Source: Synechococcus sp.
GTDB lineage: Bacteria; Cyanobacteriota; Cyanobacteriia; Thermostichales; PCC-7336
Assembly: GCA_051439425.1 (NCBI GenBank)
Contig: JBFRWD010000178.1
Location: forward strand, 1 to 64,000
Direction: 5' to 3'
Length of the DNA stretch: 64,000 nucleotides
The notes beneath the pieces are model-generated. The model was not told the origin of the DNA. It saw only the letters and a program-made list of their open reading frames with translations, and ran no database searches. The translations under genes were made by a program, and so were the position numbers. Below are positions 10,981 to 23,574 of the stretch, piece after piece (position 1 is the first letter of the stretch; each line of letters begins with the position of its first letter).

Positions 10981-11083
10981 GTCCGGTCGTGACAGCCGAT
11001 CGGCTTCACCAAACGCTCGGTTCAGCTTTCCAGTGAACAGAGGTTTGCGTGGGGAATGCCTGAGGAGATACAAGGAGTCGATC

Positions 11084-11848
11084 TTGCCTAAAACTCAGCG
11101 AGCACAGTCAAAGTCGTCATCAAAATCGTCAGCTAAATCATCATCGTCAAAACACCCATCACAGACGAAATCAAGCCGTGGGAAGTCGCGGGCGGCTGTA
11201 AACCAGCCAGCATCCCCCAGAGTGATTGCCGTTGTGAATGGCAAAGGAGGGGTCGGCAAAACTACCTCTTCAATTAATTTGGCTGCTGCGTTTTCATCAG
11301 AAGAGAGTCGCGTATTGCTATTGGATGCCGATCCCCAGGGATCGGCGACATGGTGGTCAAAACGTAGCGACACGGGCATGGGGTTTGACGTTCAACCTGT
11401 GGAGGATACGGCACAGCTAGATCGCGTGCCCAAAATCGGGGATTATGGAGTAGTGGTGGTGGATACTCCCCCCGCATTGGCTTCCGATGCACTAAGTGCG
11501 GCGATCGCTGTTGCCGACTATTTAGTGTTACCAACGCCCCCAGCTCCTTTAGACTTGGCGGCATTGATCGAAACCGTGCGATCGGCTGTAATCCCTGCTG
11601 GTGTGAGCTATCGCGTTCTACTCACCCGTGTCGACCCTCGTAGTTTGAGGGAGACCATGGAGGCTCAAAACACTCTTCTCGATCTAGGTATTCCTGCCTT
11701 TCATGCGTTTGTGCGTGCATACAAAGCCCACGAACGGGCAGCCTTAGAAGGGATGAGTATCCTCCAGTGGAAGGGTAAGCAGGCTCGCGAAGCCCAAGCA
11801 GATTACCGCCGCGTTGCCGAAGAGCTACAGCGGGATTGGAGGGACTGA
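11084..11848 (+). CDS. mcdA: ParA-family ATPase, probable carboxysome positioning protein McdA (type 2)
   Basis: Deviant Walker A KGGVGKTT, DADPQGSA followed by the WW pair (SATWW), VVDTPP. TTG start after AAGGAG. Coupled to an McdB-like gene. Confidence 0.8.
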   Translation: MPKTQRAQSKSSSKSSAKSSSSKHPSQTKSSRGKSRAAVNQPASPRVIAVVNGKGGVGKTTSSINLAAAFSSEESRVLLLDADPQGSATWWSKRSDTGMGFDVQPVEDTAQLDRVPKIGDYGVVVVDTPPALASDALSAAIAVADYLVLPTPPAPLDLAALIETVRSAVIPAGVSYRVLLTRVDPRSLRETMEAQNTLLDLGIPAFHAFVRAYKAHERAALEGMSILQWKGKQAREAQADYRRVAEELQRDWRD

Positions 11849-12504
11849 TGACGCAATCGAAACGAGCCCCAAAAAAACGATTATCGGATCTGTTGAAAGA
11901 GGAATCGGGTCACCTAGAACTGTCCCCGCCAGAATCCGAACCCACCCGCGAGGTTGAACCTGCTCCTATGACTAATGGCACTCGAACGAGCAAAGCGCGC
12001 ACGAATGGTACGCGAAAACGGGCTGGCACTAGTAGCTCTAGCACGAAAGCAAAAAGCACCAGCACTGCTCGCCGCAGCACTGCCCCCACCAAAGCCGACT
12101 TGCAAGACATGGTGAGGGATCTGAAAGCGGCCCTGGCAGAGTCGCAAACTGAGGCGGAAAATCTTCAAGCCCAACTCCATGACAAAGAGGGATATGTGGA
12201 GGAGCTACGCGGTTACCTCGACAAAGCCAACGAGTTGAAAGCAGAGCTGGATAAGTCTCAAAAGGCAATTGCACAATTGGAAGAAGAAAACGCCTCGCTG
12301 CGCAAAGACTTGAGCACCGCTCAGTCGGCGAGCAAGAATGGCAGCAAAGCAATTACCCCCCGCAAGACTCCCGGTCGTCCTGGCATGTTGGCCAAGGCAG
12401 TCCCTGGTGGCGAGAACATGGCCTACGGTCGCCGCCCGGTCGCTCCAACGAGCAATCCTTCTCAGGATGGTGAGGACTTCTCCAAGCAAACCTGGTTGCT
12501 TTAG
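11848..12504 (+). CDS. mcdB: Probable McdB (partner of McdA)
   Basis: TGATG overlap with parA; charged, disordered N-terminus (KRLSDLLKEE); central coiled coil; Trp within the last four residues (QTWLL). Confidence 0.72.
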   Translation: MTQSKRAPKKRLSDLLKEESGHLELSPPESEPTREVEPAPMTNGTRTSKARTNGTRKRAGTSSSSTKAKSTSTARRSTAPTKADLQDMVRDLKAALAESQTEAENLQAQLHDKEGYVEELRGYLDKANELKAELDKSQKAIAQLEEENASLRKDLSTAQSASKNGSKAITPRKTPGRPGMLAKAVPGGENMAYGRRPVAPTSNPSQDGEDFSKQTWLL

Positions 12505-12597
12505 GTTGTTGCCAAGCCACGACAGGCTACGGCCATTGATTGCTGACAATCGAAAACGGGAACCGGTGAAGGCTCCCGCAATTTGGCTTGTGCAGAG

Positions 12598-12930
12598 TTA
12601 GAATCCTCCATGCTGATTCAAGAGCTGTTCGTGTTGAACGAGCTGAGGCTGCAGTTGGTTAACCTGCTCGGTTTGCAGCACGCTAGGATTGATTTTTTCC
12701 TGTAATGCCGCTTCTCGTAGAGGGGGGCAAGACAGACAGGTGGGGGGGATGGGGACTTGCCAATGGGGAATCGGACGGGGGGCAACCTGAACTCGAATTC
12801 GACCACCATTTAATCCCTCGCAACCGTCAGGATTATCGGGCGCTGGCGTACAAGCCGACGCCGATGCGCTAACGATAAACGGGGTAACGGCCAATCCAAA
12901 TAGTCCTAAGGTGAGGTGCTTTACGTTCAT
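12598..12930 (-). CDS. Hypothetical small secreted Cys/Pro/Gln-rich protein
   Basis: Signal peptide ending ASASA; CTPAPDNPDGC and PIPPTCLSCPP; Gln-rich tail. Confidence 0.65.
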   Translation of the reverse strand: MNVKHLTLGLFGLAVTPFIVSASASACTPAPDNPDGCEGLNGGRIRVQVAPRPIPHWQVPIPPTCLSCPPLREAALQEKINPSVLQTEQVNQLQPQLVQHEQLLNQHGGF

Positions 12931-13455
12931 GATGAATATCCAAAAACGGGATGACTTCAGAGTCTCTTAGCCACCTATTTTTAGGAGCGATCGCGATCGC
13001 CAAACTTGGGTGATATCTCATGCCTCTCTTGTGCTGGCAGCGCCTGTATCCCAGTGGTAGAAGTATCTTCGGAACTTATTAGTGATTGCTACGATCTGCG
13101 GAAGTCACGGCAAAACCTCAGCTTGACTTTCTATCTTTTGGCAAATGGACCTTCTTTTCGATGCACGTTTTCGATCGACCATTCGTAAGCCGTTACTACT
13201 GAATTTGACAAGTAACGGGATCGGTTGGATGCGGCAATTTGATTTGTCGGTTGAATTCACTGATTGGATTCGAGAAGAAATCTCCTCTGCTGAACTGAAC
13301 TGGGCAGTGTGACCCACCGCTATGTATCAATCCGCTGCAAGGTCTGGAAGGTTGAGACCACAATAATACTTGATTTTCAAGGAAAAGTAGTCAGGAAAGT
13401 CTTCATAGGGGATTGCCGTCAGCTATACAATGCTGCAAGTGATTTGAAGCGCAGC

Positions 13456-13620
13456 ATGAGTAAGCCCCAATGGACATCGGAAGCGGAAGCCAAATTAAAG
13501 GAGATTCCCTTTTTCGTCAGACCGGCTGCTCGCAAGAAAATCGAGAAGTTTGCCCAAGAGGCCGGAGCCACTGAAATCACGGTAGAGGTCTACGAGCAAG
13601 CTAAAGCAAAGTTCAATTAA
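13456..13620 (+). CDS. Stand-alone PCP_red domain protein (ChlB/BchB C-terminal-like)
   Basis: WTSEAEAKLKEIPFFVRPAARKKIEKFAQE..ITVEVYEQAK matches the PCP_red pattern; ATG at 13456. Confidence 0.85.
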   Translation: MSKPQWTSEAEAKLKEIPFFVRPAARKKIEKFAQEAGATEITVEVYEQAKAKFN

Positions 13621-13657
13621 CTCGAACTTCCCATTCAATCTGCGCGCAGGGTCAATC

Positions 13658-15397
13658 TTATTGTGCTGGAGTTGATTGCCGAACGAGTACCGGGTCGCTC
13701 GTAGAGCTTGAAGGCTCGCCGCCACGTGGAGACTCATCAAAGGTAGCGGTGCTGGTCAGCGACTTGTACCGAATTGCCGTAGCAATCACGAACAGAAGAT
13801 CGACTCCAACCAAGGCAGCAATTCCAGCCGAACCTCCACTGCCAAATCCGTAGCTGTGCAGTCCCTGACCGAGTACGAAGTTAACTCCGTACCAGGCCAT
13901 CAGAACGGCATTGAACGACACGACGCTGGCCACAGCCATCCCGAAGGTGTTCACCCAGCCAACAAATCGGCCGTGCAAGGGAGCCAAATAGCAGAGTAAG
14001 GCGATCGCCGCCCAAGTTTCCTTCGGGTCCCATCCCCAGAAACGCCCCCAAGAGAAATGCGCCCAAATCCCACCCAAGATAATTCCAGCGGCCAGAAGTA
14101 ACACCCCCACTTGCAGCACACTGTAGTTGAGTTTGGAGAGCTTGGTAATTCGCGATTTATTGTTAGGCGACAACCAATATTGGGCCAGCATGATGTGCCC
14201 CAGCCCCATCGCCAGTGCAAAGCAGGCGTAGCCCAAAGTAATGGTGGGAACGTGAACGCTGAGCCAGAAGTTATCTCGCAGGACGGGGACGAGGGGTTGA
14301 ATGCTGGCATCCAAAACAGCGGGTAGGCTGTCAGCCAGCACTAGAGCCAGGATGGAGAGAGGGGCTGCCGCCAGTATGTAATAGCGGGCACGACTTTTCA
14401 GTTCGAAGCTCAGCGCCAGGGCTGCAATGCCAAACCCGACCCACACAACCGATTCGTACATATTGGTGACGGGAGGGCGATCGGCCACCATGACCCGCAA
14501 GGCAAACCCGTAAAGTTGAATTCCCAAGCCAGCCGTAAATATGCCGATTGTCAACCAGTACCAGTTGGGGAGCGGTACGAATGTCACGGCCAGCATTGCG
14601 ATGAACGCGATCGCAAACAGTTGCCACGCTTTGCCGAAGGCGTGCAGGCGATTAAACAATACTTCGCGGGATAGAGAGCGATCGCTGGGATAGACATCGG
14701 GGCTCAGTTGTTGCAGTTGGGTATGCAGCTGTTGGGCTAACGGTTCGAGCGCCTCCGGCGCTCTATGTCCGGCATAGGTGAGCTTCATCAGCTCCAACGT
14801 GCCAGCCAGATCGCTGGCTTCATCTACCGAATAGCTGTCGAGGGATTGCGGAATTCCCATCCACTTTCCCTTGATATCTGAGGGATGGGGCACCAGTGGC
14901 AGTTCGTCACGAGCCACCGTTTCTAACATGAGTGACATCCGATCGGCCACAGTTAAGGCTTCGCGGTCGTCGCGGGACAAGTCGACTTCTGCAGCTTGTT
15001 TGTCTCGCACCTGTCGTAACGTGACGGGCAGGTTTGACTGCATCAGCTCCCTAAAACTGAAGTACTTGCGCTCAATATCTAGGCCTGCCTGCTCCTTCAA
15101 AGGCCGGTAGTTCAGCAAAATAAATGGCTCTTGATTCCAATCGCGATCGTTGAACCACAACCCTATAAAACTGGTTAGGTAATCTTCTCGATCTCCACTG
15201 TCAAGTCGATAGGACGTGGAGCCGTGGATTTGCGTCACGGTTTCGCGGGCAACGGTATCTAGCGGCTTTTTACGACCATCGAGCTGTACGGCGAGAGACT
15301 GCAGCCCTGCGGTTGGGGCTGGCTGCCAGGTGCCGAGAGGAGTGGCAATCAGGGCCAAACCCAGCAGGATGCCAATGGCAAACTTAAGAACTTTCAT
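13658..15397 (-). CDS. ccsA: Cytochrome c biogenesis System II haem lyase CcsA/ResC with large N-terminal soluble domain
   Basis: WWD motif WGRFWGWDPKETW; PPVTNMYES, LVPVLRDNFWLSVHV, GLHSYG. N-terminal QLDGRKKPLDTVARE segment resembles long CcsBA-type proteins. Confidence 0.93.
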   Translation of the reverse strand: MKVLKFAIGILLGLALIATPLGTWQPAPTAGLQSLAVQLDGRKKPLDTVARETVTQIHGSTSYRLDSGDREDYLTSFIGLWFNDRDWNQEPFILLNYRPLKEQAGLDIERKYFSFRELMQSNLPVTLRQVRDKQAAEVDLSRDDREALTVADRMSLMLETVARDELPLVPHPSDIKGKWMGIPQSLDSYSVDEASDLAGTLELMKLTYAGHRAPEALEPLAQQLHTQLQQLSPDVYPSDRSLSREVLFNRLHAFGKAWQLFAIAFIAMLAVTFVPLPNWYWLTIGIFTAGLGIQLYGFALRVMVADRPPVTNMYESVVWVGFGIAALALSFELKSRARYYILAAAPLSILALVLADSLPAVLDASIQPLVPVLRDNFWLSVHVPTITLGYACFALAMGLGHIMLAQYWLSPNNKSRITKLSKLNYSVLQVGVLLLAAGIILGGIWAHFSWGRFWGWDPKETWAAIALLCYLAPLHGRFVGWVNTFGMAVASVVSFNAVLMAWYGVNFVLGQGLHSYGFGSGGSAGIAALVGVDLLFVIATAIRYKSLTSTATFDESPRGGEPSSSTSDPVLVRQSTPAQ

Positions 15398-15459
15398 AGG
15401 ATGAAGAAGAATCGATGCAAACAGCAGAGAAATTATCAGCGCGAGATCGAAGGCGGGAA

Positions 15460-17364
15460 TTAAGTCGAGGTCTGTGGAGATAGCTCGGTTGCGTCAAGAG
15501 GAGGCTGCTGGGCTGGGGATTGATTAGTTGCGGGGGCGATCGCCGCGTCCGATCGCTCGGCAGTACCCGAGCCCAAATTTCGGAATTGAGACACAAATTT
15601 GCGATATCGCCGAGCCAGCTCCTGACCGTAGAACATGACGCCAATCCCGGCGACGACAAGCATCGAGCCAGTCCACGTCAAAGCAGTTACCCACGCAGGC
15701 TCCCGCTTCACCTGCAACGTTGATTGGCGCAAGTCGCCAGGATTCCACGACGCTTGAGCGATCTTCCAGCCGCGATACCAGGTGGGATGGTTCATCCACA
15801 CTTTACGGAAGGCATGCTGTCCCAGCTCGGGATCGTCAATTCGAATTTGGCTCGTCCACATTGCGACAGATTCTGCCCCCTCGTTGCGCTCCACGATGAA
15901 GTCTTCCAGTGCAACAGCAAATGGCAGTTCCATTGATTTGGGACTGTAAATCGCAAACAACTCGCCATTGGGATTATCCGGATTTGGATTGGACAATGCT
16001 TGAGGTTCACCCCACTGCAGCCACTGGCGATCGCCGCTTGGCGATTCCACTAACACTGCCGGGATTGCATTGGCCGATTGCGAGTTGTCTACCTGAGAGA
16101 CCTCGACCACCTCTCGTTCAATCCGAGCCCGAGGAAGCCAGTCCGTAACCGTTAGTTGAAAATCTGCCCATCCCAAATCGACGGGGGTATCGAGTGGCAG
16201 GATACCTGACTGGAATCCCTTGGAGCTGTTGACGGTGTAGTACAACTGGCCGTCTGAAGAGGCGATCGCCGTAAACACATTCTCTTCAGGGGTCGGCGCC
16301 TGATAGGTGACTGTTGCATCCACTGCATTACCAGCCACCAATGTCCGAACGGGGTCTAAATTGGCTTGCCCAAATACGAACCATCGCTCCACCCCGGTGG
16401 GACTCTCTACCTGCAATTGCAGGGCAGGATTGCGCAACTGTTCGGATACTGTCTCCGGCTCATTGCGGCTATTCAAGCGAAAATCCGGCCAAAAATTGAC
16501 GACGTTCACTTGTATATTGTCGGACAAATCATTGCCCGATAATTTCAGCGTTTGTCCGACAGACTGCTCTACATCAAACTCGATTGTCTTTCCCTGGCTA
16601 GCAATCGCCAATGTTCCCCATTTGCCCGCCACTTGCGCTGGAGCAGTCATCAAGGCCAGGCGATCGGCGTCCGTATCGGCAACCACCAGCTTTAAGGTGG
16701 CAGGGCCAAGATTAACCTGCTGTGCGCTGGACGGTGTTGCCGCCAGCCATTCTTCTACCGATTGCCCCATGTTCTGACTGGCCAAAGAGAGATGTAGGGC
16801 AGGATTGGACACCTCTCCATCTGTCTTAAACCGAGTCAATGAGAAGGTGCGATCTCGGTAGTCCAGCAGCTTTAATCCGCCGACCGTTCGCTCCGGAATC
16901 GTGCCATCCGCCAACCTCGCCACATCGACGGCACTGATTGTGCCATCCGGCTGCATGACTTCCAGCAACTCCCCTTGCAACCTCAGCATGGTATTGGCAG
17001 CCATATCTGTACGCAGGGGCAACATACCTTCTACGCCAAGGTGGATCACCGCCGCCGACCCCGCGATTAAGACCACCAGCCCGAAATGAGTTAAGGCAAA
17101 GCCTATCTTGCGGGCACCCCGCCAAGGAAATCGAGTCAACGCAGAAACCGAGAGGTTCACAGCCAGCAGCAACATTAGCAACCCGAACCAGCCGCTTTTA
17201 TAGATCTCGCCCTGAACGATGTCCGAACCCACGCGGGACTCGTAGAAGGTTGTTCCGATCAATATGGCTGCGATCGCCCCCAATAACGGCACCGCTAATT
17301 GAATCGAGCCTAAAAACTTGATTACTGGATGTTGATTGCTGGAGTGACGATGGTGTCCTGACAT
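15460..17364 (-). CDS. ResB/CcsB-like cytochrome c biogenesis protein
   Basis: FLGSIQLAVPLL..IGT, IYKSGWF..LL..NL, LTHFGLVVLIAG (conserved TM His), LPFAVALEDF, MNHP..YRGWKIAQAS, C-terminal TM. ATG at 17364 preferred over 17490. Confidence 0.88.
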   Translation of the reverse strand: MSGHHRHSSNQHPVIKFLGSIQLAVPLLGAIAAILIGTTFYESRVGSDIVQGEIYKSGWFGLLMLLLAVNLSVSALTRFPWRGARKIGFALTHFGLVVLIAGSAAVIHLGVEGMLPLRTDMAANTMLRLQGELLEVMQPDGTISAVDVARLADGTIPERTVGGLKLLDYRDRTFSLTRFKTDGEVSNPALHLSLASQNMGQSVEEWLAATPSSAQQVNLGPATLKLVVADTDADRLALMTAPAQVAGKWGTLAIASQGKTIEFDVEQSVGQTLKLSGNDLSDNIQVNVVNFWPDFRLNSRNEPETVSEQLRNPALQLQVESPTGVERWFVFGQANLDPVRTLVAGNAVDATVTYQAPTPEENVFTAIASSDGQLYYTVNSSKGFQSGILPLDTPVDLGWADFQLTVTDWLPRARIEREVVEVSQVDNSQSANAIPAVLVESPSGDRQWLQWGEPQALSNPNPDNPNGELFAIYSPKSMELPFAVALEDFIVERNEGAESVAMWTSQIRIDDPELGQHAFRKVWMNHPTWYRGWKIAQASWNPGDLRQSTLQVKREPAWVTALTWTGSMLVVAGIGVMFYGQELARRYRKFVSQFRNLGSGTAERSDAAIAPATNQSPAQQPPLDATELSPQTST

Positions 17365-17422
17365 ATGCAATGGGTGAGATGCGATCGCATGCCTACATAA
17401 CCAAATCCCTCTAGGGTGAATT

Positions 17423-17438
17423 TGTACTCTTTGGTACA
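17423..17438. promoter_or_regulatory. NtcA-type box upstream of resB-ccsA
   Basis: TGTActctttggTACA = TGTA-N8-TACA, 59 bp upstream of the ATG at 17364; no clean TAN3T at 22 nt on the minus strand. Confidence 0.55.
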
Positions 17439-17597
17439 ACTTGTAGAGAATTCCAAATCTTTTCGCATAGGTAAAATGCAAAAACAGCAATCCGACAAAG
17501 ATCCCGAACGTAAGATTAAGGCTTCAAGCACATTCATGCATCAAACGCATTCTGTTGATTCGCTTTGTGTATTCAATTGAAATTTATTCGCAAAATA

Positions 17598-17639
17598 GTA
17601 TTGCTGGCTACGATCTCGCACTCTACTAACACCTAACGT
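17598..17639 (+). promoter_or_regulatory. Canonical NtcA-activated (class II) promoter facing the globin-cytochrome arm
   Basis: GTAttgctggcTAC (17598-17611), exactly 22 nt, then TAACGT (17634-17639) = GTA-N8-TAC-N22-TAN3T. Confidence 0.68.
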
Positions 17640-17952
17640 GCAAACTTAATGCAGCGAATTCTCGTAAGTTCACCTCTCCCGCGCGCATTGGAAGTGAATA
17701 GCTTGCGTGGTATTTGTTAGCTCTTTAGTTGAATTCCCCGGTGCTTTACTGCGGTTAGCTGTTTCAGCCACCAGGGTTACAGCATAGACTGTGCTGGAAT
17801 TTAGCTAAATCTGTGCGGACTACGGATGGCTGATTTTGGTCACGCCGAGTTATTCGTGCGCAATTGGTCAGGATCTTCACGAACGGTTCTGGAACTCGAA
17901 TTGTTTGTTGGAAAGGTTCTACCTCCTAGTTAACTGATAAGGATTAAAAGGC

Positions 17953-18498
17953 ATGTCTCTGAATGTTGAATTGCTAGAGAGCAGCTTCGAAAAAATTAAG
18001 CCCTACGGCACGTCCTTCACCGAGTCTTTCTACAGCAATTTGTTTGAATCAGCTCCTGAAGCTAAGCCGCTATTCGCTCATACCGATATGAAAAAGCAGG
18101 AGAAAATGCTGCTGTCCTCCCTGGTTCTAGTGGTAGACAACCTGCGCGTTGGAGATGTGTTGACTTCTACCCTACGTGGCTTAGGGGCTCGCCACGTTAA
18201 GTACGGCGCACTCCCCGCTCATTACCCCATTGTTGGCGGAGCACTACTGCAAACCTTCGAGCAATACCTAGGGGATGAATGGACTCCCGATGTCAAACAG
18301 GCATGGGTGGATGCCTATGGGGCTGTAACCGAATTGATGCTGGACGGAGCGGACTACTCCTCGAGTGAGGTTGCCCTACCTCCGGAGGCTACTGCATCGG
18401 AAGCATCTGGAGTCGACGATTCCGGTAATCGTGGCGAATTATTACCCGTCGCTGGGGCCACCATTGGCTTGCTGATTTTGGGGTTGATCCTGCTGTAG
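17953..18498 (+). CDS. Single-domain 3/3 globin (flavohaemoglobin-related) with C-terminal membrane anchor
   Basis: FYSNLF (TyrB10), PLF (PheCD1), Q at E7, LGARHVKYG (HisF8), HYPIVGGALL, WTPDVKQAWVDAY; acidic linker then VAGATIGLLILGLILL. Confidence 0.92.
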   Translation: MSLNVELLESSFEKIKPYGTSFTESFYSNLFESAPEAKPLFAHTDMKKQEKMLLSSLVLVVDNLRVGDVLTSTLRGLGARHVKYGALPAHYPIVGGALLQTFEQYLGDEWTPDVKQAWVDAYGAVTELMLDGADYSSSEVALPPEATASEASGVDDSGNRGELLPVAGATIGLLILGLILL

Positions 18499-18668
18499 TT
18501 CTCCACGGCGTTGAAAAAAGAGTTGTGAAGTGTCGTTCCGTTTCTTGCTAGGTACTGGTTGCTTGTCGGTCGGTGTTTTAGTGAGGCGATTTGGCCAGCA
18601 ACTCAACCATTTCCGAGCAAAGCCCAACTAGTTTGGAGCTCTCAGGTTGTCAATGGTTTGCAGTTTGA

Positions 18669-19289
18669 ATGTTGAAGTTGAGAACGGCAGTAATAGGGAT
18701 AGCGGTCTTGGCGATCGCTGCTGGTGCGATTGTCTTTGCCCTCGGTCTGGACCAACGTACTGCTTTTTTGCCCGGAGCAACATCGTCTGGCCATCAAGTG
18801 TTTGAAGCCTCCTGTCAATCCTGCCACCAAGGATTTCAGAAGGTTAGTAACGATACTTGCAATCGCTGCCACGAAGCAGAGATGGCAGAGGATATCCATG
18901 GGCTGAGCAAGTTCCGCGATCCTCGCTGGGCCACCTACTTAGAAGAGTTGGATGTTCTCACATGTACAGCCTGCCACGAAGAGCACATGCCGATGTTTGC
19001 TCGCGGAGTCAATATTCCTCCCGATCTCTGCATGAGCTGTCACGATCACATCATTGATGCCACCACTTCCGATAGCCTGGATAGCCACATTGGTTTTACA
19101 CCAGATGGATGTTGGACAGCAGGCTGTCACAACTACCACGATCATCGCTCGATTTCCACCGGTTTCTTGCGGGCGAACTTAGATCAGCCGGATTGGCTGC
19201 CAGAGCCGAAACGACTGGAACGGGAGATTGTCCCTCAGGTGGCAACCGCTCCCTCCCCCGACCTCAATCGCGAGCTATGGGGGGACTAA
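18669..19289 (+). CDS. Membrane-anchored/exported pentahaem c-type cytochrome
   Basis: N-terminal hydrophobic helix; CQSCH, CNRCH, CTACH, CMSCH and atypical CWTAGCH. Confidence 0.9.
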   Translation: MLKLRTAVIGIAVLAIAAGAIVFALGLDQRTAFLPGATSSGHQVFEASCQSCHQGFQKVSNDTCNRCHEAEMAEDIHGLSKFRDPRWATYLEELDVLTCTACHEEHMPMFARGVNIPPDLCMSCHDHIIDATTSDSLDSHIGFTPDGCWTAGCHNYHDHRSISTGFLRANLDQPDWLPEPKRLEREIVPQVATAPSPDLNRELWGD

Positions 19290-20116
19290 TGCAAACGGTT
19301 CGATTAACTAGGCGTATTTTGTCTCTTCTTGTAAGCAGGGAGAAGTTAGACATTTCAGAAGCGCTCTCGGCTTGTGTTCTAGTAGTCATTCTCCTGCTGA
19401 GCCTGGCGTGGCCCGCAGCGGCAAGTGCTCTAACCGTAGATGAGGCAACAGAATTGTGGACAGGTAGCACGCACTCACTGCAGGGCGTCAACTGTACAAG
19501 CTGCCACCAAGTGGAGGACACGGGTGAATTTGTGGCCAGCCCCGACCAAGAAAGCTGTCGCCAATGCCACGAGTTCTCCACGGAGACGTTCCTACTGGGT
19601 AAGCACGGTATCCGCACGCTAGAGGGGCAGTCCCCCTTGACGCCCGAGATGGCTCTATTGCCGATGAAACCTGATGCTCACGGCACCGAGATGAACTGCA
19701 ACACCTGTCATGACGTCCATGTTCAGGATATGCACACAGCATCTGTGGATGCTTGCCTAACCTGCCACGCCGATGACCACTCGCTGAATTACGTCAATTC
19801 CAAGCACGCAGGACTGCTGACAGGGAATGAGAATCTGCCGCGTCCCAGCGCAGGGGAAGTAACCTGCGCCACCTGTCACCTGCCTCGTCAGACAGTCGGT
19901 GGAGAGGTACGGGTGAATCACAACAACACCTTCAACTTGCGGCCGGGCGATCGCATGGTGGCGGATGTATGTATGAACTGTCACGGATTTGAATTTGCTT
20001 ATAACGCAGTTTTTGATGACGACCTGGTTACCGAGAACTTTGCTCGCCTGCCCGAACACAACCATGAATCGCTTGCGATGGTTCGGGAGCAGCGCGATCG
20101 CAGAAATAACCGTTAA
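19289..20116 (+). CDS. Exported hexahaem c-type cytochrome
   Basis: TAATG overlap with the upstream gene; signal segment ending AAASA; CTSCH, CRQCH, CNTCH, CLTCH, CATCH, CMNCH. Confidence 0.9.
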   Translation: MQTVRLTRRILSLLVSREKLDISEALSACVLVVILLLSLAWPAAASALTVDEATELWTGSTHSLQGVNCTSCHQVEDTGEFVASPDQESCRQCHEFSTETFLLGKHGIRTLEGQSPLTPEMALLPMKPDAHGTEMNCNTCHDVHVQDMHTASVDACLTCHADDHSLNYVNSKHAGLLTGNENLPRPSAGEVTCATCHLPRQTVGGEVRVNHNNTFNLRPGDRMVADVCMNCHGFEFAYNAVFDDDLVTENFARLPEHNHESLAMVREQRDRRNNR

Positions 20117-20193
20117 TCGTCTCGCAAGTCTGCCGGTCCCTGAGGGCTGGCCGCTCCCCCGTTGAATTCGTACTCATTTGAGGGCCTCTGTTC

Positions 20194-20871
20194 ATGAAAC
20201 TCTTATCGACAATCCGAGCCTGGCTGGGCCAGTTCAAGCCTCGTACCGTGGCCGTATCCACATTTCTCGTAGCTGCCGCATTTACGATTGTTGCTTGCAG
20301 TGGCGGTACTCCTCAAGCATCGGCTCCGGCTGGTATTGCTCCGGACAAAGTTGTTGACTACATTGCTGCAACGGCATTAGGCGGACGTACTGCGTATGTG
20401 AAGCACGTCGTCAACCGCGTCACGCTACTAGAAGGTGAACCGGTCGAGCGAGAGAATGCTGTAGTTGACGCTCATTCCACCGAATTTTGGGAGGATGATG
20501 ACGGCATTCCTCTGCCCGCACAAATGTTCCGTCTAGCGTCCGAAGTCACCTCCGCTGACGATCTGGCGGGTGGTTTTACCATCGGCTTGATCTCCAGTTG
20601 GAACATCAACGATGCGCACTCTCCCAAAACTGATTTTGAGAAAGATGCCATCAAGGAGATGGAAGAAACTGGTGCACCCGTCAAGATCGAGCAAGAAATT
20701 GCTGGCCAGAAATACATGACGGCGATGTACCCCGACAAGGCAGTGGCTGAAGCCTGCGTCACCTGCCACAACACTCACCCCATTCACCTAGAGCGCTATC
20801 CCGATAAGGTGTTTGCTCTAGACGACGTAATGGGTGGTGTGGTCATCAACCTGCCGTTGGATGACGCCTAA
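20194..20871 (+). CDS. DUF3365/Tll0287-like monohaem c lipoprotein
   Basis: Lipobox IVAC; PLPAQMFR, PKTDFEKDAI, ACVTCHNTHP, DDVMGGVVINLPL. Confidence 0.8.
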   Translation: MKLLSTIRAWLGQFKPRTVAVSTFLVAAAFTIVACSGGTPQASAPAGIAPDKVVDYIAATALGGRTAYVKHVVNRVTLLEGEPVERENAVVDAHSTEFWEDDDGIPLPAQMFRLASEVTSADDLAGGFTIGLISSWNINDAHSPKTDFEKDAIKEMEETGAPVKIEQEIAGQKYMTAMYPDKAVAEACVTCHNTHPIHLERYPDKVFALDDVMGGVVINLPLDDA

Positions 20872-20882
20872 CTTCTCAGACT

Positions 20883-20920
20883 TGGGGACAGGTTCCGATC
20901 GAGATCGGATGCCTGCCCCA
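20883..20920. terminator. Strong intra-cluster stem-loop
   Basis: TGGGGACAGGTTCCGATC-ga-GATCGGATGCCTGCCCCCA, 12 bp after the DUF3365 stop; a T run lies ~40 bp further on. Confidence 0.5.
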
Positions 20921-21066
20921 CACACATTTATGTCCTAAACAACTGACAGCAACTGAGCCTTTTTTTATGGTTCGACAAGCAATTGAGACTCTCAGATCGT
21001 TTAAGTCTTTGTTTACTAATCACATCGATCGCTAGCCCAGACCTAAACCGTGCTTCAGGCTAACTC

Positions 21067-21657
21067 ATGAAACCTACGTTCCCAACGCTTTCAGTATTAG
21101 CAGTAATTTCAATCGTTCTAGTGGTGCCGTTCATCCTGAGCGATGCTTACTTGCCTCTGATTCGAGATACAGCGTTTTACACGCATCAAATTTTGCGACG
21201 GGGACTGTACAAAGAAATTACAGGATTTATTTGTCTGGGATTTTTTGCAATTGAGATGATCTTGACCCTTCGAAAGCGGGGAAGTCGCTGGAAAATCAAG
21301 CTGCCCGGTTCAATCTTTTTCTGGCGTAGCTTGCATATTTTCCTGGGGGTCGGGTTCATTGGAGCAACGCTAATCCACAGTTTCGGCGCAGGTGGTAGCG
21401 TGTTCAACCAAGCATTTTTAGTCGTTTTTCTTGTACTGTCCCTAATCGCCATGATGGGGGTTGCAGTAGAAACTCGACTGGTCGGTGTGACGGCTCGCAA
21501 GATTACTCTTCTTCCAGTAGGAGGTCTCTCAGCCATCCCCAAAGGCCAGCTGATTCGACAATTGCGTTCAGTTTGGCTTGGAATTCACATTGTATTGGTC
21601 AGCTTATTCACAGTTATGCTGGGGTTTCACCTCTTCCTAGCGTTTTATTACGAGTGA
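21067..21657 (+). CDS. Integral membrane protein with four TM histidines (putative dihaem cytochrome b)
   Basis: WRSLHIFLG..ATLIHS and WLGIHIVL..MLGFHLF: two helices each with His-X13-His, the spacing of bis-His dihaem b proteins. Confidence 0.7.
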   Translation: MKPTFPTLSVLAVISIVLVVPFILSDAYLPLIRDTAFYTHQILRRGLYKEITGFICLGFFAIEMILTLRKRGSRWKIKLPGSIFFWRSLHIFLGVGFIGATLIHSFGAGGSVFNQAFLVVFLVLSLIAMMGVAVETRLVGVTARKITLLPVGGLSAIPKGQLIRQLRSVWLGIHIVLVSLFTVMLGFHLFLAFYYE

Positions 21658-21705
21658 AGTGGTGCAAACGCACCTGTTTAGTCTTCTGCTTCTGCTGTTA
21701 GTCGC

Positions 21706-22182
21706 ATGAGTTTTTTATCATCAATGCCTCGCAGGTGGGTGGCTACTTTTTTGGCGATCGCCTGTAGCTTCTCATTATTTCTCAGTCCCCCCCCTGCATT
21801 TGCCAGCTCCCTACTATCGGGGTTTGCCGCACTCAAGCAGGCAGTCAATACTTCAGTGCCCTACCGTGAGGCCGCAGCGGATAGCAAACCAGCCTTAGTG
21901 GAGTTTTATGCCGATTGGTGTAGTGTTTGCCGCGCAATGGCTCCGACTGTAGCCGAGCTACACGATCGATATGGGGAGCACATCAATTTCGTCATGCTCG
22001 ACATCGACGATCCCCAGTGGGCAGAGCAAGTGCGCAAATTTCGGGTGGTTGGTGTTCCCTCTTTTGCCTTTATCTCGTCCTCCCAGGAGGGCACGGGTGA
22101 TCGCCACGTTCAGCAAACATTAGTGGGGAAGCATCCAAACACTGTCATGGTAGAGGCTCTCGACCGACTGCTTTCGACCTAG
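21706..22182 (+). CDS. Exported thioredoxin-like thiol-disulfide oxidoreductase (TxlA/HCF164/ResA-like)
   Basis: Signal peptide; VEFYADWCSVCRAMAP; INFVMLDIDDPQW; GVP cis-Pro loop. Confidence 0.85.
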   Translation: MSFLSSMPRRWVATFLAIACSFSLFLSPPPAFASSLLSGFAALKQAVNTSVPYREAAADSKPALVEFYADWCSVCRAMAPTVAELHDRYGEHINFVMLDIDDPQWAEQVRKFRVVGVPSFAFISSSQEGTGDRHVQQTLVGKHPNTVMVEALDRLLST

Positions 22183-22355
22183 CCGCTCCACAATTCGTCT
22201 TGCAGTTGCCGTATTTGACTGACCAAGGCCCCGGTCAGCACCATCAGTTTGACGGAATTGGGCAGGATATTTGCCCGATCGCGCAACAAAACTATTGACC
22301 CCACATATTGGAAGAAGGTTGGGGCTGAGGGCTGTCGAACTCAGGTTTAGCAGGA

Positions 22356-23282
22356 TTACTGCGGAACGTTTAACGCCCCTCCCTTGCGCAGCCAGTTTTT
22401 TTGCTCGTCGCTCAACCCAACCGCATCGGTCAAGCTGGCCCCAACGACATTTGCCCCTTTAAACATTGCCCCCCGAAGGTTGGCTTGCTCCAAATTGGCA
22501 TCGCCGAGATTGGCTGCCGTAAAATTGGCTCCGGCTAAATTCGCCCGTTCCCAACTGCTGCCGAACAACGATGCTCCGCTAAAGTTCACCCCGCTGGCAT
22601 AGGTGCGATCGGCGATCGCCGTATCAAATTGAGCCTGGCTGGCCACGCTTTCCGCCAAGTACGCCTCGGTCAAATTAGCTCCAATAATGTCAGCCGAGGT
22701 AAGATTCGCTTTGGCCATGCGGGCCCGCGTCAAAATACTTTTGTCCAATTGCGTTCCGACTAACTGCGCTCGCGTTAGATTTGCGGCATCCAGATTGACC
22801 TGCACCAGCTTGGCACTAGACAAGTCAGCATCGGTCCAGTCGGATGCTGCGAGATTGGCTTTTACCAGGTCAGTCACTTGAAAGATTGCCCCTCGCGCAC
22901 TGCAATCTTCCAGATTGGCCTGCTGCATCGTTGCATGCGAGGCATCGGCACCATCAAGGATGGCCCCTAAAAATCGAGTTTGAGTAGCGATCGCATGTCG
23001 TAGATTGGCGCGCTCTAACCGTGCAGCGGTTAATTGAGCGCGAGTCAGAATGGCTCTCTCCAGGATAGTTTCCACAAGCCATGCGCGAATGAGCAGGGTA
23101 TCTGTAAAATTCGTTCGCTTGCAAGAAGCATTCGATAGATTGGCCACTCGCATGTAAGACTGCGAGAAGTCTCCATCATCCAAGCATTGCCCTTGCAGCT
23201 CGATATGTGCCAGTTCTTGTTTCGCCAGCGGTAGCCCCTGTTGAAGCTTGTTCATCACTTCCTGTGGAGCAAGTACGCTCAT
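22356..23282 (-). CDS. Pentapeptide repeat protein
   Basis: Tandem A(N/D)LxX repeats over most of its length. Confidence 0.92.
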   Translation of the reverse strand: MSVLAPQEVMNKLQQGLPLAKQELAHIELQGQCLDDGDFSQSYMRVANLSNASCKRTNFTDTLLIRAWLVETILERAILTRAQLTAARLERANLRHAIATQTRFLGAILDGADASHATMQQANLEDCSARGAIFQVTDLVKANLAASDWTDADLSSAKLVQVNLDAANLTRAQLVGTQLDKSILTRARMAKANLTSADIIGANLTEAYLAESVASQAQFDTAIADRTYASGVNFSGASLFGSSWERANLAGANFTAANLGDANLEQANLRGAMFKGANVVGASLTDAVGLSDEQKNWLRKGGALNVPQ

Positions 23283-23574
23283 GCTCTCAACTCCTCGAAA
23301 CCCATATTCAGCCCACTATAAGCAATAACACTGTAAGCAATAACAAAGATGGGGAACCTATATCTATGCCAAATGCGTCAATTCGTAATGACGATATGGA
23401 ATGGCTCTTGTATTGCCCAGCTCTGCTCGAATTGGCTTGGTCGTGCCTAGTGCGACTTGCACCTAATCCTGCAACTCCCCAACCGGCATGAAAAACATCT
23501 CCAATCCCGTGCAGAAGTCAGATTAGACTGAGATAGCTAGATATACATTTGTTTTTCTTCCGTTTGTAAAACCA

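Follow-up and report, generated by a model that had tools for sequence, protein, structure and literature searches.

Organization of the cluster

The DNA analysed here is a 64,000-nt stretch (the window) covering positions 1 to 64,000 of contig JBFRWD010000178.1 from a cyanobacterium, Synechococcus sp. (assembly GCA_051439425.1; source genome G000). Positions 13658-22182 hold a cluster of eight genes in two divergent arms separated by a 588-bp intergenic region. The left arm, on the minus strand, consists of ResB-like and CcsA-like genes, and the right arm, on the plus strand, of six genes that run from a globin to a thioredoxin. Together they appear to encode a chain of about 15 haems that crosses the membrane and ends at a tethered globin. 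With families assigned by Pfam and NCBIfam profile searches of the window proteins, the genes are:

13658-15397, minus strand: CcsA-like synthase subunit, 579 residues (PF01578, 99.3 bits; cut-off 29.9)
15460-17364, minus strand: ResB/CcsB-like synthase subunit, 634 residues from the ATG at 17364 (PF05140, 49.9-50.3 bits; cut-off 24.6)
17953-18498, plus strand: tail-anchored single-domain globin, 181 residues (PF00042, 61.6 bits)
18669-19289, plus strand: membrane-anchored pentahaem cytochrome c (cyt5), 206 residues (PF14537, 30.6 bits)
19289-20116, plus strand: hexahaem cytochrome c (cyt6), 275 residues (PF14537, 41.6 bits)
20194-20871, plus strand: Tll0287-like (sCache_heme, DUF3365) monohaem c lipoprotein, 225 residues (PF11845, 63.6 bits; cut-off 24.1)
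21067-21657, plus strand: 4-His transmembrane protein, probably dihaem-b, 196 residues (DUF4405-like family)
21706-22182, plus strand: exported or anchored thioredoxin-like protein with a WCxxC motif, 158 residues (PF00085, 62.6 bits)

A preliminary description of this locus, made from the sequence alone, had proposed a self-contained, co-conserved system with 12 c-haem motifs, its own maturase, a transmembrane cytochrome-b-type component and two NtcA-type boxes. All eight open reading frames are present, family matches were recovered for the parts, and the motif count is correct (5 + 6 + 1). The b-type component is borne out as a predicted haem-b protein, with four invariant histidines and DUF4405-like links; the boxes are present and recur in the orthologous intergenic regions of relatives. 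The haem motifs are at least 95% conserved in the orthologues of the pentahaem (n = 79), hexahaem (n = 80) and Tll0287-like (n = 77) proteins; throughout, a conserved residue is one with at least 95% identity across aligned orthologues, unless it is called invariant. The flanks of the cluster are ordinary cyanobacterial chromosome, with lgt, ycf4, rbcLXS, glycogen phosphorylase and opcA.

Conservation and distribution

The hexahaem protein has 614 relatives at E ≤ 0.001 among 2084 candidates, and every source name shown among the 120 relatives listed is cyanobacterial. In a scan of one genome per species, at least 417 genomes contain a hexahaem relative. The best 80 of 417 loci, one per species genome and many of them cut by a contig end, were searched by tblastn with the window proteins; 73 of their record titles name a cyanobacterium and seven read only "uncultured bacterium". 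Matches to cyt5 and cyt6 occur in all 80 loci, to the Tll0287-like protein in 79, the globin in 78, the membrane protein in 74, the thioredoxin in 58, ResB in 52 and CcsA in 48, with the same gene order throughout. Of the 34 loci of at least 20 kb (full-flank loci), every one has the five structural genes; ResB is found in 30, CcsA in 31 and the thioredoxin in 30, and all seven core genes stand together in 30.

Co-occurrence across whole genomes follows an all-or-none pattern. Among 41 relatives, cyt6 is found in 11 and the membrane protein in those same 11. The N-terminal domain peculiar to the cluster's CcsA is found in ten, each of which also carries the cytochromes, and the single miss is an 89%-complete assembly in 720 contigs. 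The association goes far beyond a chance neighbourhood, and the cluster is almost certainly a coherent co-functional module, in keeping with the self-contained system first proposed. It is at the same time a minority trait with a patchy distribution across the phylum: in an even phylum sample, cyt6 is found at E ≤ 1e-20 in 4 of 401 genomes. By record title the carriers are mostly marine benthic or mat-forming lineages, and the culturable carriers named include Leptolyngbya sp. PCC 7375 and Xenococcus sp. PCC 7305.

As a rule, the c-type cytochromes of cyanobacteria are regarded as monohaem, and the group as one without multihaem electron conduits. The present system, with 12 c-haems and a maturase of its own, is conserved in no fewer than 417 species genomes. 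The preliminary description knew of no characterised cyanobacterial system with such a layout, and the literature searched, with subscription journals outside its coverage, likewise held no published description of the cluster.

Pentahaem and hexahaem cytochromes

The pentahaem protein has an N-terminal transmembrane helix, four CxxCH motifs and a fifth, invariant site of the form CX4CH (C148-W-T-x-G-C153-H154). Its motifs and six extra histidines (42, 77, 106, 140, 157 and 159) are conserved in 79 orthologues and invariant in 31. The hexahaem protein, whose ATG overlaps the pentahaem TGA so that the two genes are translationally coupled, begins with a signal peptide or anchor and combines six CxxCH motifs with six extra histidines (62, 106, 144, 164, 173 and 211) that are conserved in 80 sequences. 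It offers 230 mature residues for six predicted haems, or about 38 residues per haem. Since six extra invariant histidines per protein are enough to make all eleven haems bis-His ligated, we interpret the two proteins as wires and not as enzymes of the NrfA or HAO type. With this predicted haem occupancy, their role would be electron transfer and not catalysis. Electron carriers are also what NCBIfam matches best (the GSU2203, DmsE and QrcA families), each score falling far short of its cut-off. For the hexahaem protein, the AlphaFold2 model is unusable, with a predicted local distance difference test score (pLDDT) of 46.6.

The preliminary description had favoured a catalytic role: an extracytoplasmic, nitrogen-regulated reductase that takes nitrite, nitric oxide (NO) or hydroxylamine to ammonium and is fed through the b-type membrane protein, while the globin only scavenges or senses NO or O2. 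It had also called for a comparison with NrfA and HAO chains, the outcome of which is divided. The hexahaem profile does match an HAO-like chain (6h5l; 32.7 bits, E 4.9e-7) and NrfA (2j7a; E 1.5e-5), and the alignment with NrfA takes in the residues behind the sixth haem motif, paired with the NrfA segment behind its CxxCH. These matches are weak, cover short and partial stretches and come with no family-level score, and we read them as probable traces of shared multihaem ancestry. The resemblance to NrfA/NrfB/NrfH and to HAO/ONR extends to the presence of multihaem c proteins with a dedicated lyase. Beyond this, the differences prevail. First, CxxCK is absent from the c-haem motifs, every one of which ends in His, and Cytochrom_C552 (PF02335) scores 17.7 bits against a cut-off of 24.1. 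Second, the extra invariant histidines permit full bis-His ligation in both proteins. Third, there is no subunit of catalytic size: known catalytic multihaem enzymes are far larger than 230 residues, and where HAO and ONR have eight haems in a catalytic subunit of ~500 residues, the hexahaem protein has six in 275. Fourth, the window of 64,000 nt contains no nitrogen-assimilation genes, and NOS, whose co-occurrence had been suggested as a check, is found in one of the 41 relatives, a genome free of the cluster. We consider reduction of nitrogen oxides by these cytochromes unlikely, and the proposed route to ammonium finds no backing in the motifs or family scores.

The pentahaem protein is equally hard to place. 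Its profile gives only motif-level matches to PDB chains, at E 0.03 or weaker. With an N-terminal transmembrane helix and five haems it invites comparison with NapC, NirT and NrfH, but no Pfam family of the NapC/NirT type is listed up to E 10, in a search where HMMER filters drop weak matches. By their profiles, no family test places the multihaem proteins of the cluster in NrfA, HAO or NapC/NrfH.

Tll0287-like lipoprotein

The third c-type cytochrome is a lipoprotein with a lipobox Cys35 and a single haem motif, C188xxC191H192, which is invariant in 30 sequences. As no cysteine is conserved beyond Cys35 and those of the CxxCH, the distal Cys ligand is absent. The protein resembles Tll0287 of Thermosynechococcus (PDB 5B82) in its PF11845 domain, its one CxxCH near the C-terminus, its extracytoplasmic location and its stand-alone architecture. 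It differs from Tll0287 and other stand-alone sCache_heme proteins in being a lipoprotein and in the missing distal ligand. Sequence and profile searches against PDB chains returned nothing at E ≤ 1.

According to the accessible part of a preprint on this family (bioRxiv 10.64898/2026.02.01.703092), both Tll0287 and a stand-alone protein of P. putida are His/Cys-ligated and show redox-type properties, and a signalling-type sCache_heme member without the distal Cys binds NO. In the same part, stand-alone members are described as having no conserved partner genes, and their function is called open. The lack of the distal Cys here recalls the NO-binding class and counts in favour of the N-oxide reductase discussed above. 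The setting of the gene, in contrast to stand-alone family members, is constant: it always lies between the genes for the hexahaem cytochrome and the dihaem-b protein. This would give stand-alone Tll0287/sCache_heme proteins a genomic context with defined partners for the first time.

4-His membrane protein

Four histidines of the membrane protein, His90, His104, His174 and His188, show no variation in 23 orthologues or, once distant relatives and fusion proteins are included, in any of 25 sequences. In an AlphaFold2 model, a helical bundle (pLDDT 71.4), they fall into two pairs with i, i+14 spacing, located on helices 83-105 and 159-195. Because the two pairs lie on two parallel helices, they probably hold two b-haems stacked across the bilayer. 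The positive-inside rule would put His90 and His174 towards the cytoplasm, and His104 and His188 towards the outside.

The family link is indirect. The window protein scores 13.5 bits against DUF4405 (PF14358; E 0.11, cut-off 26.7) and E 0.74 against PF01292, whereas a relative, P0131, which matches the family profile at E 9.4e-26, reaches 39.3 bits against DUF4405. Judged through intermediates such as P0131, the window protein is a distant DUF4405 relative and not a Pfam member. An Oscillospiraceae DUF4405 protein has been purified as a haem-b membrane cytochrome with four central histidines, as reported in the part of a preprint available to us (bioRxiv 10.1101/2024.03.13.584918). Like the DUF4405/MsrQ/PepSY-like cytochromes treated there, for which a role in transmembrane electron transfer is proposed, the window protein is small, polytopic and equipped with four central invariant histidines. 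It differs from them, as far as that text goes, in its partners, which are c-type cytochromes and a globin instead of flavinylated proteins and ApbE.

The family is small, with only 236 proteins at E ≤ 0.001 in a profile search of 1.84 billion representatives. Among 20 distant homologues scanned, 13 carry a BFD [2Fe-2S] domain N-terminal to the membrane domain, usually preceded by a Pyr_redox_2 NAD(P)H-flavoprotein. One homologue is also fused to H-NOX and another to cNMP-binding and FNR-type domains, and two stand-alone proteins match DUF4405, one of them above the cut-off. Since the domain is fused to NAD(P)H-flavoprotein and [2Fe-2S] modules, it would elsewhere transfer electrons between a redox module in the cytoplasm and the outside. 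This suggests a transmembrane electron module that normally has a redox protein at its cytoplasmic face.

These fusions also bear on an alternative in which electrons are exported through the dihaem membrane protein and the multihaem cytochromes, with the globin as cytoplasmic entry point or as an O2/NO-sensitive gate. The acceptor might be Fe(III), for reductive iron uptake, or an extracellular sink in dark anoxic mats, or the chain might serve as an overflow valve for carbon/nitrogen imbalance. The fused homologues, including the one with H-NOX, are most simply exporters. The mostly marine benthic or mat-forming carriers would fit this role, as would the occurrence of DNA of this stretch in marine sediment metagenomes, and control by NtcA would suit an overflow valve under nitrogen limitation. 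The cluster, however, contains no outer-membrane conduit, porin or flavin-based partner and no cytoplasmic dehydrogenase to load the chain, and a globin would be an unusual electron donor. On balance we judge outward export rather unlikely.

Several minor observations concern the same protein. Seven of its homologues (P0160, P0165, P0178, P0185, P0191, P0221 and P0236) are fusions of ~640-900 residues in which Pyr_redox_2, Rubredoxin_C and BFD [2Fe-2S] domains are combined with a C-terminal 4-His membrane domain; the H-NOX domain of one is N-terminal. Such proteins look like exporters that carry electrons from NAD(P)H across the membrane within a single chain. A fold search with the membrane model returned only generic helical bundles, all below a meaningful Z for such bundles, and was set aside: talin rod domains reach Z 11-12, E. 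coli CybB (5oc0) 8.1, cytochrome b561 7.8 and Dcytb 7.7. In the ESM Atlas the protein matches two cyanobacterial clusters (0.94); a further one, at 0.88, is labelled Myxococcota and is a lead only. A metagenome scan with P0131 gave one weak, uninformative locus. One orthologue (G029:C33:6728-7300) has an in-frame TAG inside the match and may be a pseudogene or an assembly error.

Tail-anchored globin

The globin is of the flavohaemoglobin (FHb)/single-domain globin (SDgb) type, followed by an acidic linker and a C-terminal hydrophobic helix. It starts at helix A and so has no signal peptide. The closest solved chains are HGbI (3s1i; E 1.6e-21), Vitreoscilla haemoglobin and flavohaemoglobins (to E 3.4e-15). 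Tyr27 (B10), Gln49 (E7) and His81 (F8) are invariant in 12 sequences, and the HGbI alignment pairs the Tyr and the Gln. The protein belongs to the same globin family as Hmp, Vitreoscilla haemoglobin and Hell's Gate globin I, with which it shares Tyr-B10, Gln-E7 and His-F8. It differs from the flavohaemoglobin Hmp in three respects. First, it lacks the FAD/NAD(P)H reductase: neither Pfam nor NCBIfam finds a reductase domain, and the match to NF009805 covers only model positions 14-135 of 399 (73 bits against a 432-bit cut-off). Second, it has a C-terminal membrane anchor, and the number of globin domains in its orthologues ranges from one to three: at least 36 of 78 have two and 3 of 78 have three, with some "single-domain" calls being mis-called starts of genes that are really tandem. 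Third, it would be linked to a chain of 14 haems that could replace the reductase.

Every one of the 16 orthologues inspected ends in a hydrophobic tail. The anchor and the frequent tandem arrangement, both of which the preliminary description had missed, make the globin a candidate for the end of the chain rather than a bystander. The conserved core has no other cytoplasmic redox protein. We hold the arguments for and against the globin as the redox end of the conduit to be evenly balanced. Should it be so, the search for the physiological reductase of a single-domain bacterial globin, long under way, would have a concrete candidate in this chain.

Dedicated maturation genes

The left arm and the last gene of the right arm would serve cytochrome maturation. 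The CcsA-like protein has a conserved N-terminal extracytoplasmic extension of ~290 residues, and as it scores below the cut-off of TIGR03144 (152.5 bits against 187.6), we regard it as a divergent paralogue. Its WWD block (W450-D457) and His382, His401, His447, His475 and His514 are conserved in 46 sequences. In the ResB-like protein, His93, His108 and His526 are conserved in 47 sequences; the roles of individual histidines in either subunit are putative. For ResB, the ATG at 17364 is preferred over a TTG at 17490 because the orthologue in one of the two closest relatives (L009) starts at matching residues. Housekeeping ccsA (244 bits) and ccsB (219 bits) genes are kept on other contigs of the source genome, so that the pair in the cluster is dedicated, a second System II pair, as the preliminary description had supposed in crediting the cluster with a maturase of its own. 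The thioredoxin-like protein, with W71, C72 and C75 conserved in 57 sequences, is the probable apocytochrome disulfide reductase, in the role of ResA/CcsX.

The second ResB/CcsA pair is possibly needed for the invariant CX4CH site of the pentahaem protein. Wolinella reportedly uses separate CcsA isoenzymes, NrfI for CX2CK and CcsA1 for CX15CH. The likeness is that an extra CcsA/ResB set is encoded beside a multihaem substrate with a non-standard site, here the invariant CX4CH, and co-occurs only with that substrate. The cyanobacterial CcsA differs in its conserved N-terminal domain of ~290 residues, and its CX4CH specificity is putative. The cluster lends itself naturally to asking whether a CX4CH site requires a System II synthase of its own.

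Intergenic region and NtcA-type boxes

The region between the arms contains three elements of note:

17424-17437: NtcA-type box 1, GTAN8TAC (flanked by T...A), 60 nt upstream of the ResB-like ATG
17536-17571: central conserved element with a partly palindromic consensus (blocks 17536-17547 and 17554-17571)
17598-17611: NtcA-type box 2, GTAN8TAC, 342 nt upstream of the globin ATG

When 45 intergenic regions are aligned, only four blocks emerge as conserved: the two boxes, which are the best conserved, and two that make up the central element. Box 2 is followed 22 nt downstream by TAACGT (17634-17639), a -10-like hexamer of the form TAN3T. Across the whole window, GTAN8TAC is weakly enriched (10 sites against 5.1 expected; 7 of 100 shuffles reach 10). 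The orthologous ResB-globin regions of 44 loci hold 40 sites in 28,116 nt, compared with 8.7 +/- 3.0 (maximum 18) in 300 mononucleotide shuffles, and the density is 1.42/kb there versus 0.36/kb in 386 other non-coding segments of the same loci; as these regions are richer in AT (63% versus 56%) and the loci are kin, the enrichment figures overstate independence. At least one box is present in 28 of the 44 loci and a pair in 12, with the boxes ~90-275 bp apart, mostly 174-211 bp. A -10-like hexamer lies 19-25 nt downstream of 15 of the 28 globin-proximal boxes. Expression of the cluster is probably under NtcA-type control, and these conserved boxes are an argument for the N-oxide reductase. The central element may be the site of a second regulator, although the window's own copy is degenerate and fits the consensus poorly. 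Other searches for regulatory or hidden elements were negative: an Rfam search of 12500-23500 gave zero matches, no convincing small open reading frames were found in the two larger intergenic gaps, and a promoter/terminator consensus scan gave fewer sites than shuffles. Among the sequencing runs listed for the 8.5-kb stretch there is no RNA run.

A proposed haem wire as the reductase of a tethered globin

We used the gene content, ligand residues and family links described above to assemble a model of the complete chain, in which topology and subunit contacts are predicted. First, outside the cytoplasm, in the periplasm or thylakoid lumen, the pentahaem, hexahaem and Tll0287-type proteins would form the outer segment. 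Second, the DUF4405-like membrane protein, with probably two stacked b-haems, would connect the outer c-haems with the cytoplasmic face. Third, at that face, the tethered flavohaemoglobin-type globin, in one to three copies per chain, would receive the electrons. These would be supplied by an extracytoplasmic donor or by the quinol pool and be handed on from the globin haem to O2 and/or NO, so that the chain would serve as the globin's reductase and the outcome would be NO dioxygenation or O2 reduction. The second ResB/CcsA pair and the exported thioredoxin would mature the 12 c-haems.

Confidence differs between the parts of this model. It is likely that the cluster is a transmembrane electron conduit. 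For the whole, a transmembrane haem wire with its own maturation that acts as the reductase of a tethered globin, we estimate a probability of roughly 0.45, which makes it the best single explanation. That the chain is a globin-terminated electron transport chain, with the often tandem, tethered haemoglobin as terminal NO dioxygenase or O2 reductase, is a tentative proposal, and NO dioxygenation specifically is a similarly doubtful assignment of substrate.

A number of points weigh against the wire-and-globin model. Electron exchange between the globin and the membrane protein is a predicted contact, and the globin could instead be a sensor, an O2 buffer or merely co-regulated. In the distant fusions, flow is most simply outward from NAD(P)H, opposite to the inward direction proposed here. 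The window membrane protein scores below the DUF4405 cut-off, and its fold search is generic. The predicted bis-His ligation of all haems is a count of conserved histidines; one of these histidines could be catalytic instead of a ligand, and conserved methionines exist. The profile of the hexahaem protein is weakly similar to an HAO-like chain and NrfA, and the Tll0287-like protein, without its distal Cys as in the NO-binding class of the sCache_heme preprint, may offer an extracytoplasmic ligand-reactive site. NtcA control fits a role in the nitrogen cycle at least as well as NO or O2 handling. Finally, a Rieske protein, described below, accompanies the cluster in most other lineages and is missing here, so the core model may be incomplete.

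If the globin and the Tll0287-like protein are viewed as paired gas or redox sensors on the inside and outside, the cytochromes would set their redox poise. Membrane-bound globin-coupled sensors are said to exist, which lends this idea some plausibility. Moreover, sCache_heme domains fused to signalling modules sense NO, to go by the accessible part of the preprint on that family (bioRxiv 10.64898/2026.02.01.703092). The conserved core, however, has no transmitter domain (kinase, GGDEF or MCP), two-component genes occur in only 15 of 80 loci at varying positions, and twelve c-haems with a dedicated maturase are a heavy investment for a sensor. A sensing assembly is very unlikely.

The closest functional analogues of the proposed wire are the Hmc and Tmc complexes of sulfate reducers. 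In these, too, jointly encoded proteins (multihaem cytochromes c outside, a b-type cytochrome in the membrane and a redox protein facing the cytoplasm) move electrons across the membrane. The cyanobacterial cluster differs in having a tail-anchored globin in place of an Fe-S protein, its own System II maturase, a Tll0287-type haem lipoprotein and an oxygenic phototroph as host; no family-level homology to Hmc or Tmc was noticed. For the single parts, profile searches point to FHb-type globins, DUF4405-like cytochromes, Tll0287 and System II synthases as the closest homologues. If the model is true, the cluster would be the first functional multihaem respiratory-type chain in cyanobacteria. It would also give oxygenic phototrophs a terminal module of a new kind, which NtcA turns on in response to nitrogen status. 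The cluster possibly links nitrogen control by NtcA to the handling of NO or O2, or of redox overflow, in mats whose conditions swing each day between supersaturated O2 and anoxia.

Neighbouring and accessory genes

Rieske protein: In other lineages, a Rieske [2Fe-2S] protein of ~158 residues with a twin-arginine signal and a lipobox (for example L060:3502-3975, minus strand) is encoded directly downstream of ccsA. The gene is present in 31 of the 46 loci that have room for one, but not in the window or in its two closest relatives (L009 and L010). The protein scores best against b6f PetC models, far below the cut-offs. With this query no clear orthologue was found in the source genome, where the best match has 42% identity over 74 residues.

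Pentapeptide-repeat protein: Beyond the thioredoxin gene lies a frequent neighbour and possible accessory of the cluster:

22356-23282, minus strand: pentapeptide-repeat protein, 308 residues (PF00805)

Homologues, mostly of ~306-308 residues with some shorter or longer, are found near 43 of the 80 loci and in 22 of the 34 full-flank loci; because repeat proteins cross-match easily, their orthology is uncertain.

Other neighbours: A ChaN-type haem-binding protein (PF04187, 236.7 bits; for example L053:14135-15010, plus strand) follows the thioredoxin gene in 13 of 80 loci and may be a haem-handling accessory of the cluster. On the other side, just downstream of ccsA, a stand-alone open reading frame of 103 residues (13309-13620, plus strand) matches only the C-terminal PCP_red domain (PF08369, 78.5 bits), a domain of protochlorophyllide reductase subunit B, and its copy in L009 is 96% identical. 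Upstream of the cluster, 11033-12504 (plus strand) encodes a ParA/MinD-like ATPase, with a Walker A motif recognized by eye, and then a Ser/Thr/Lys-rich, coiled-coil-like protein that has no Pfam match; the pair resembles a chromosomal partition system.

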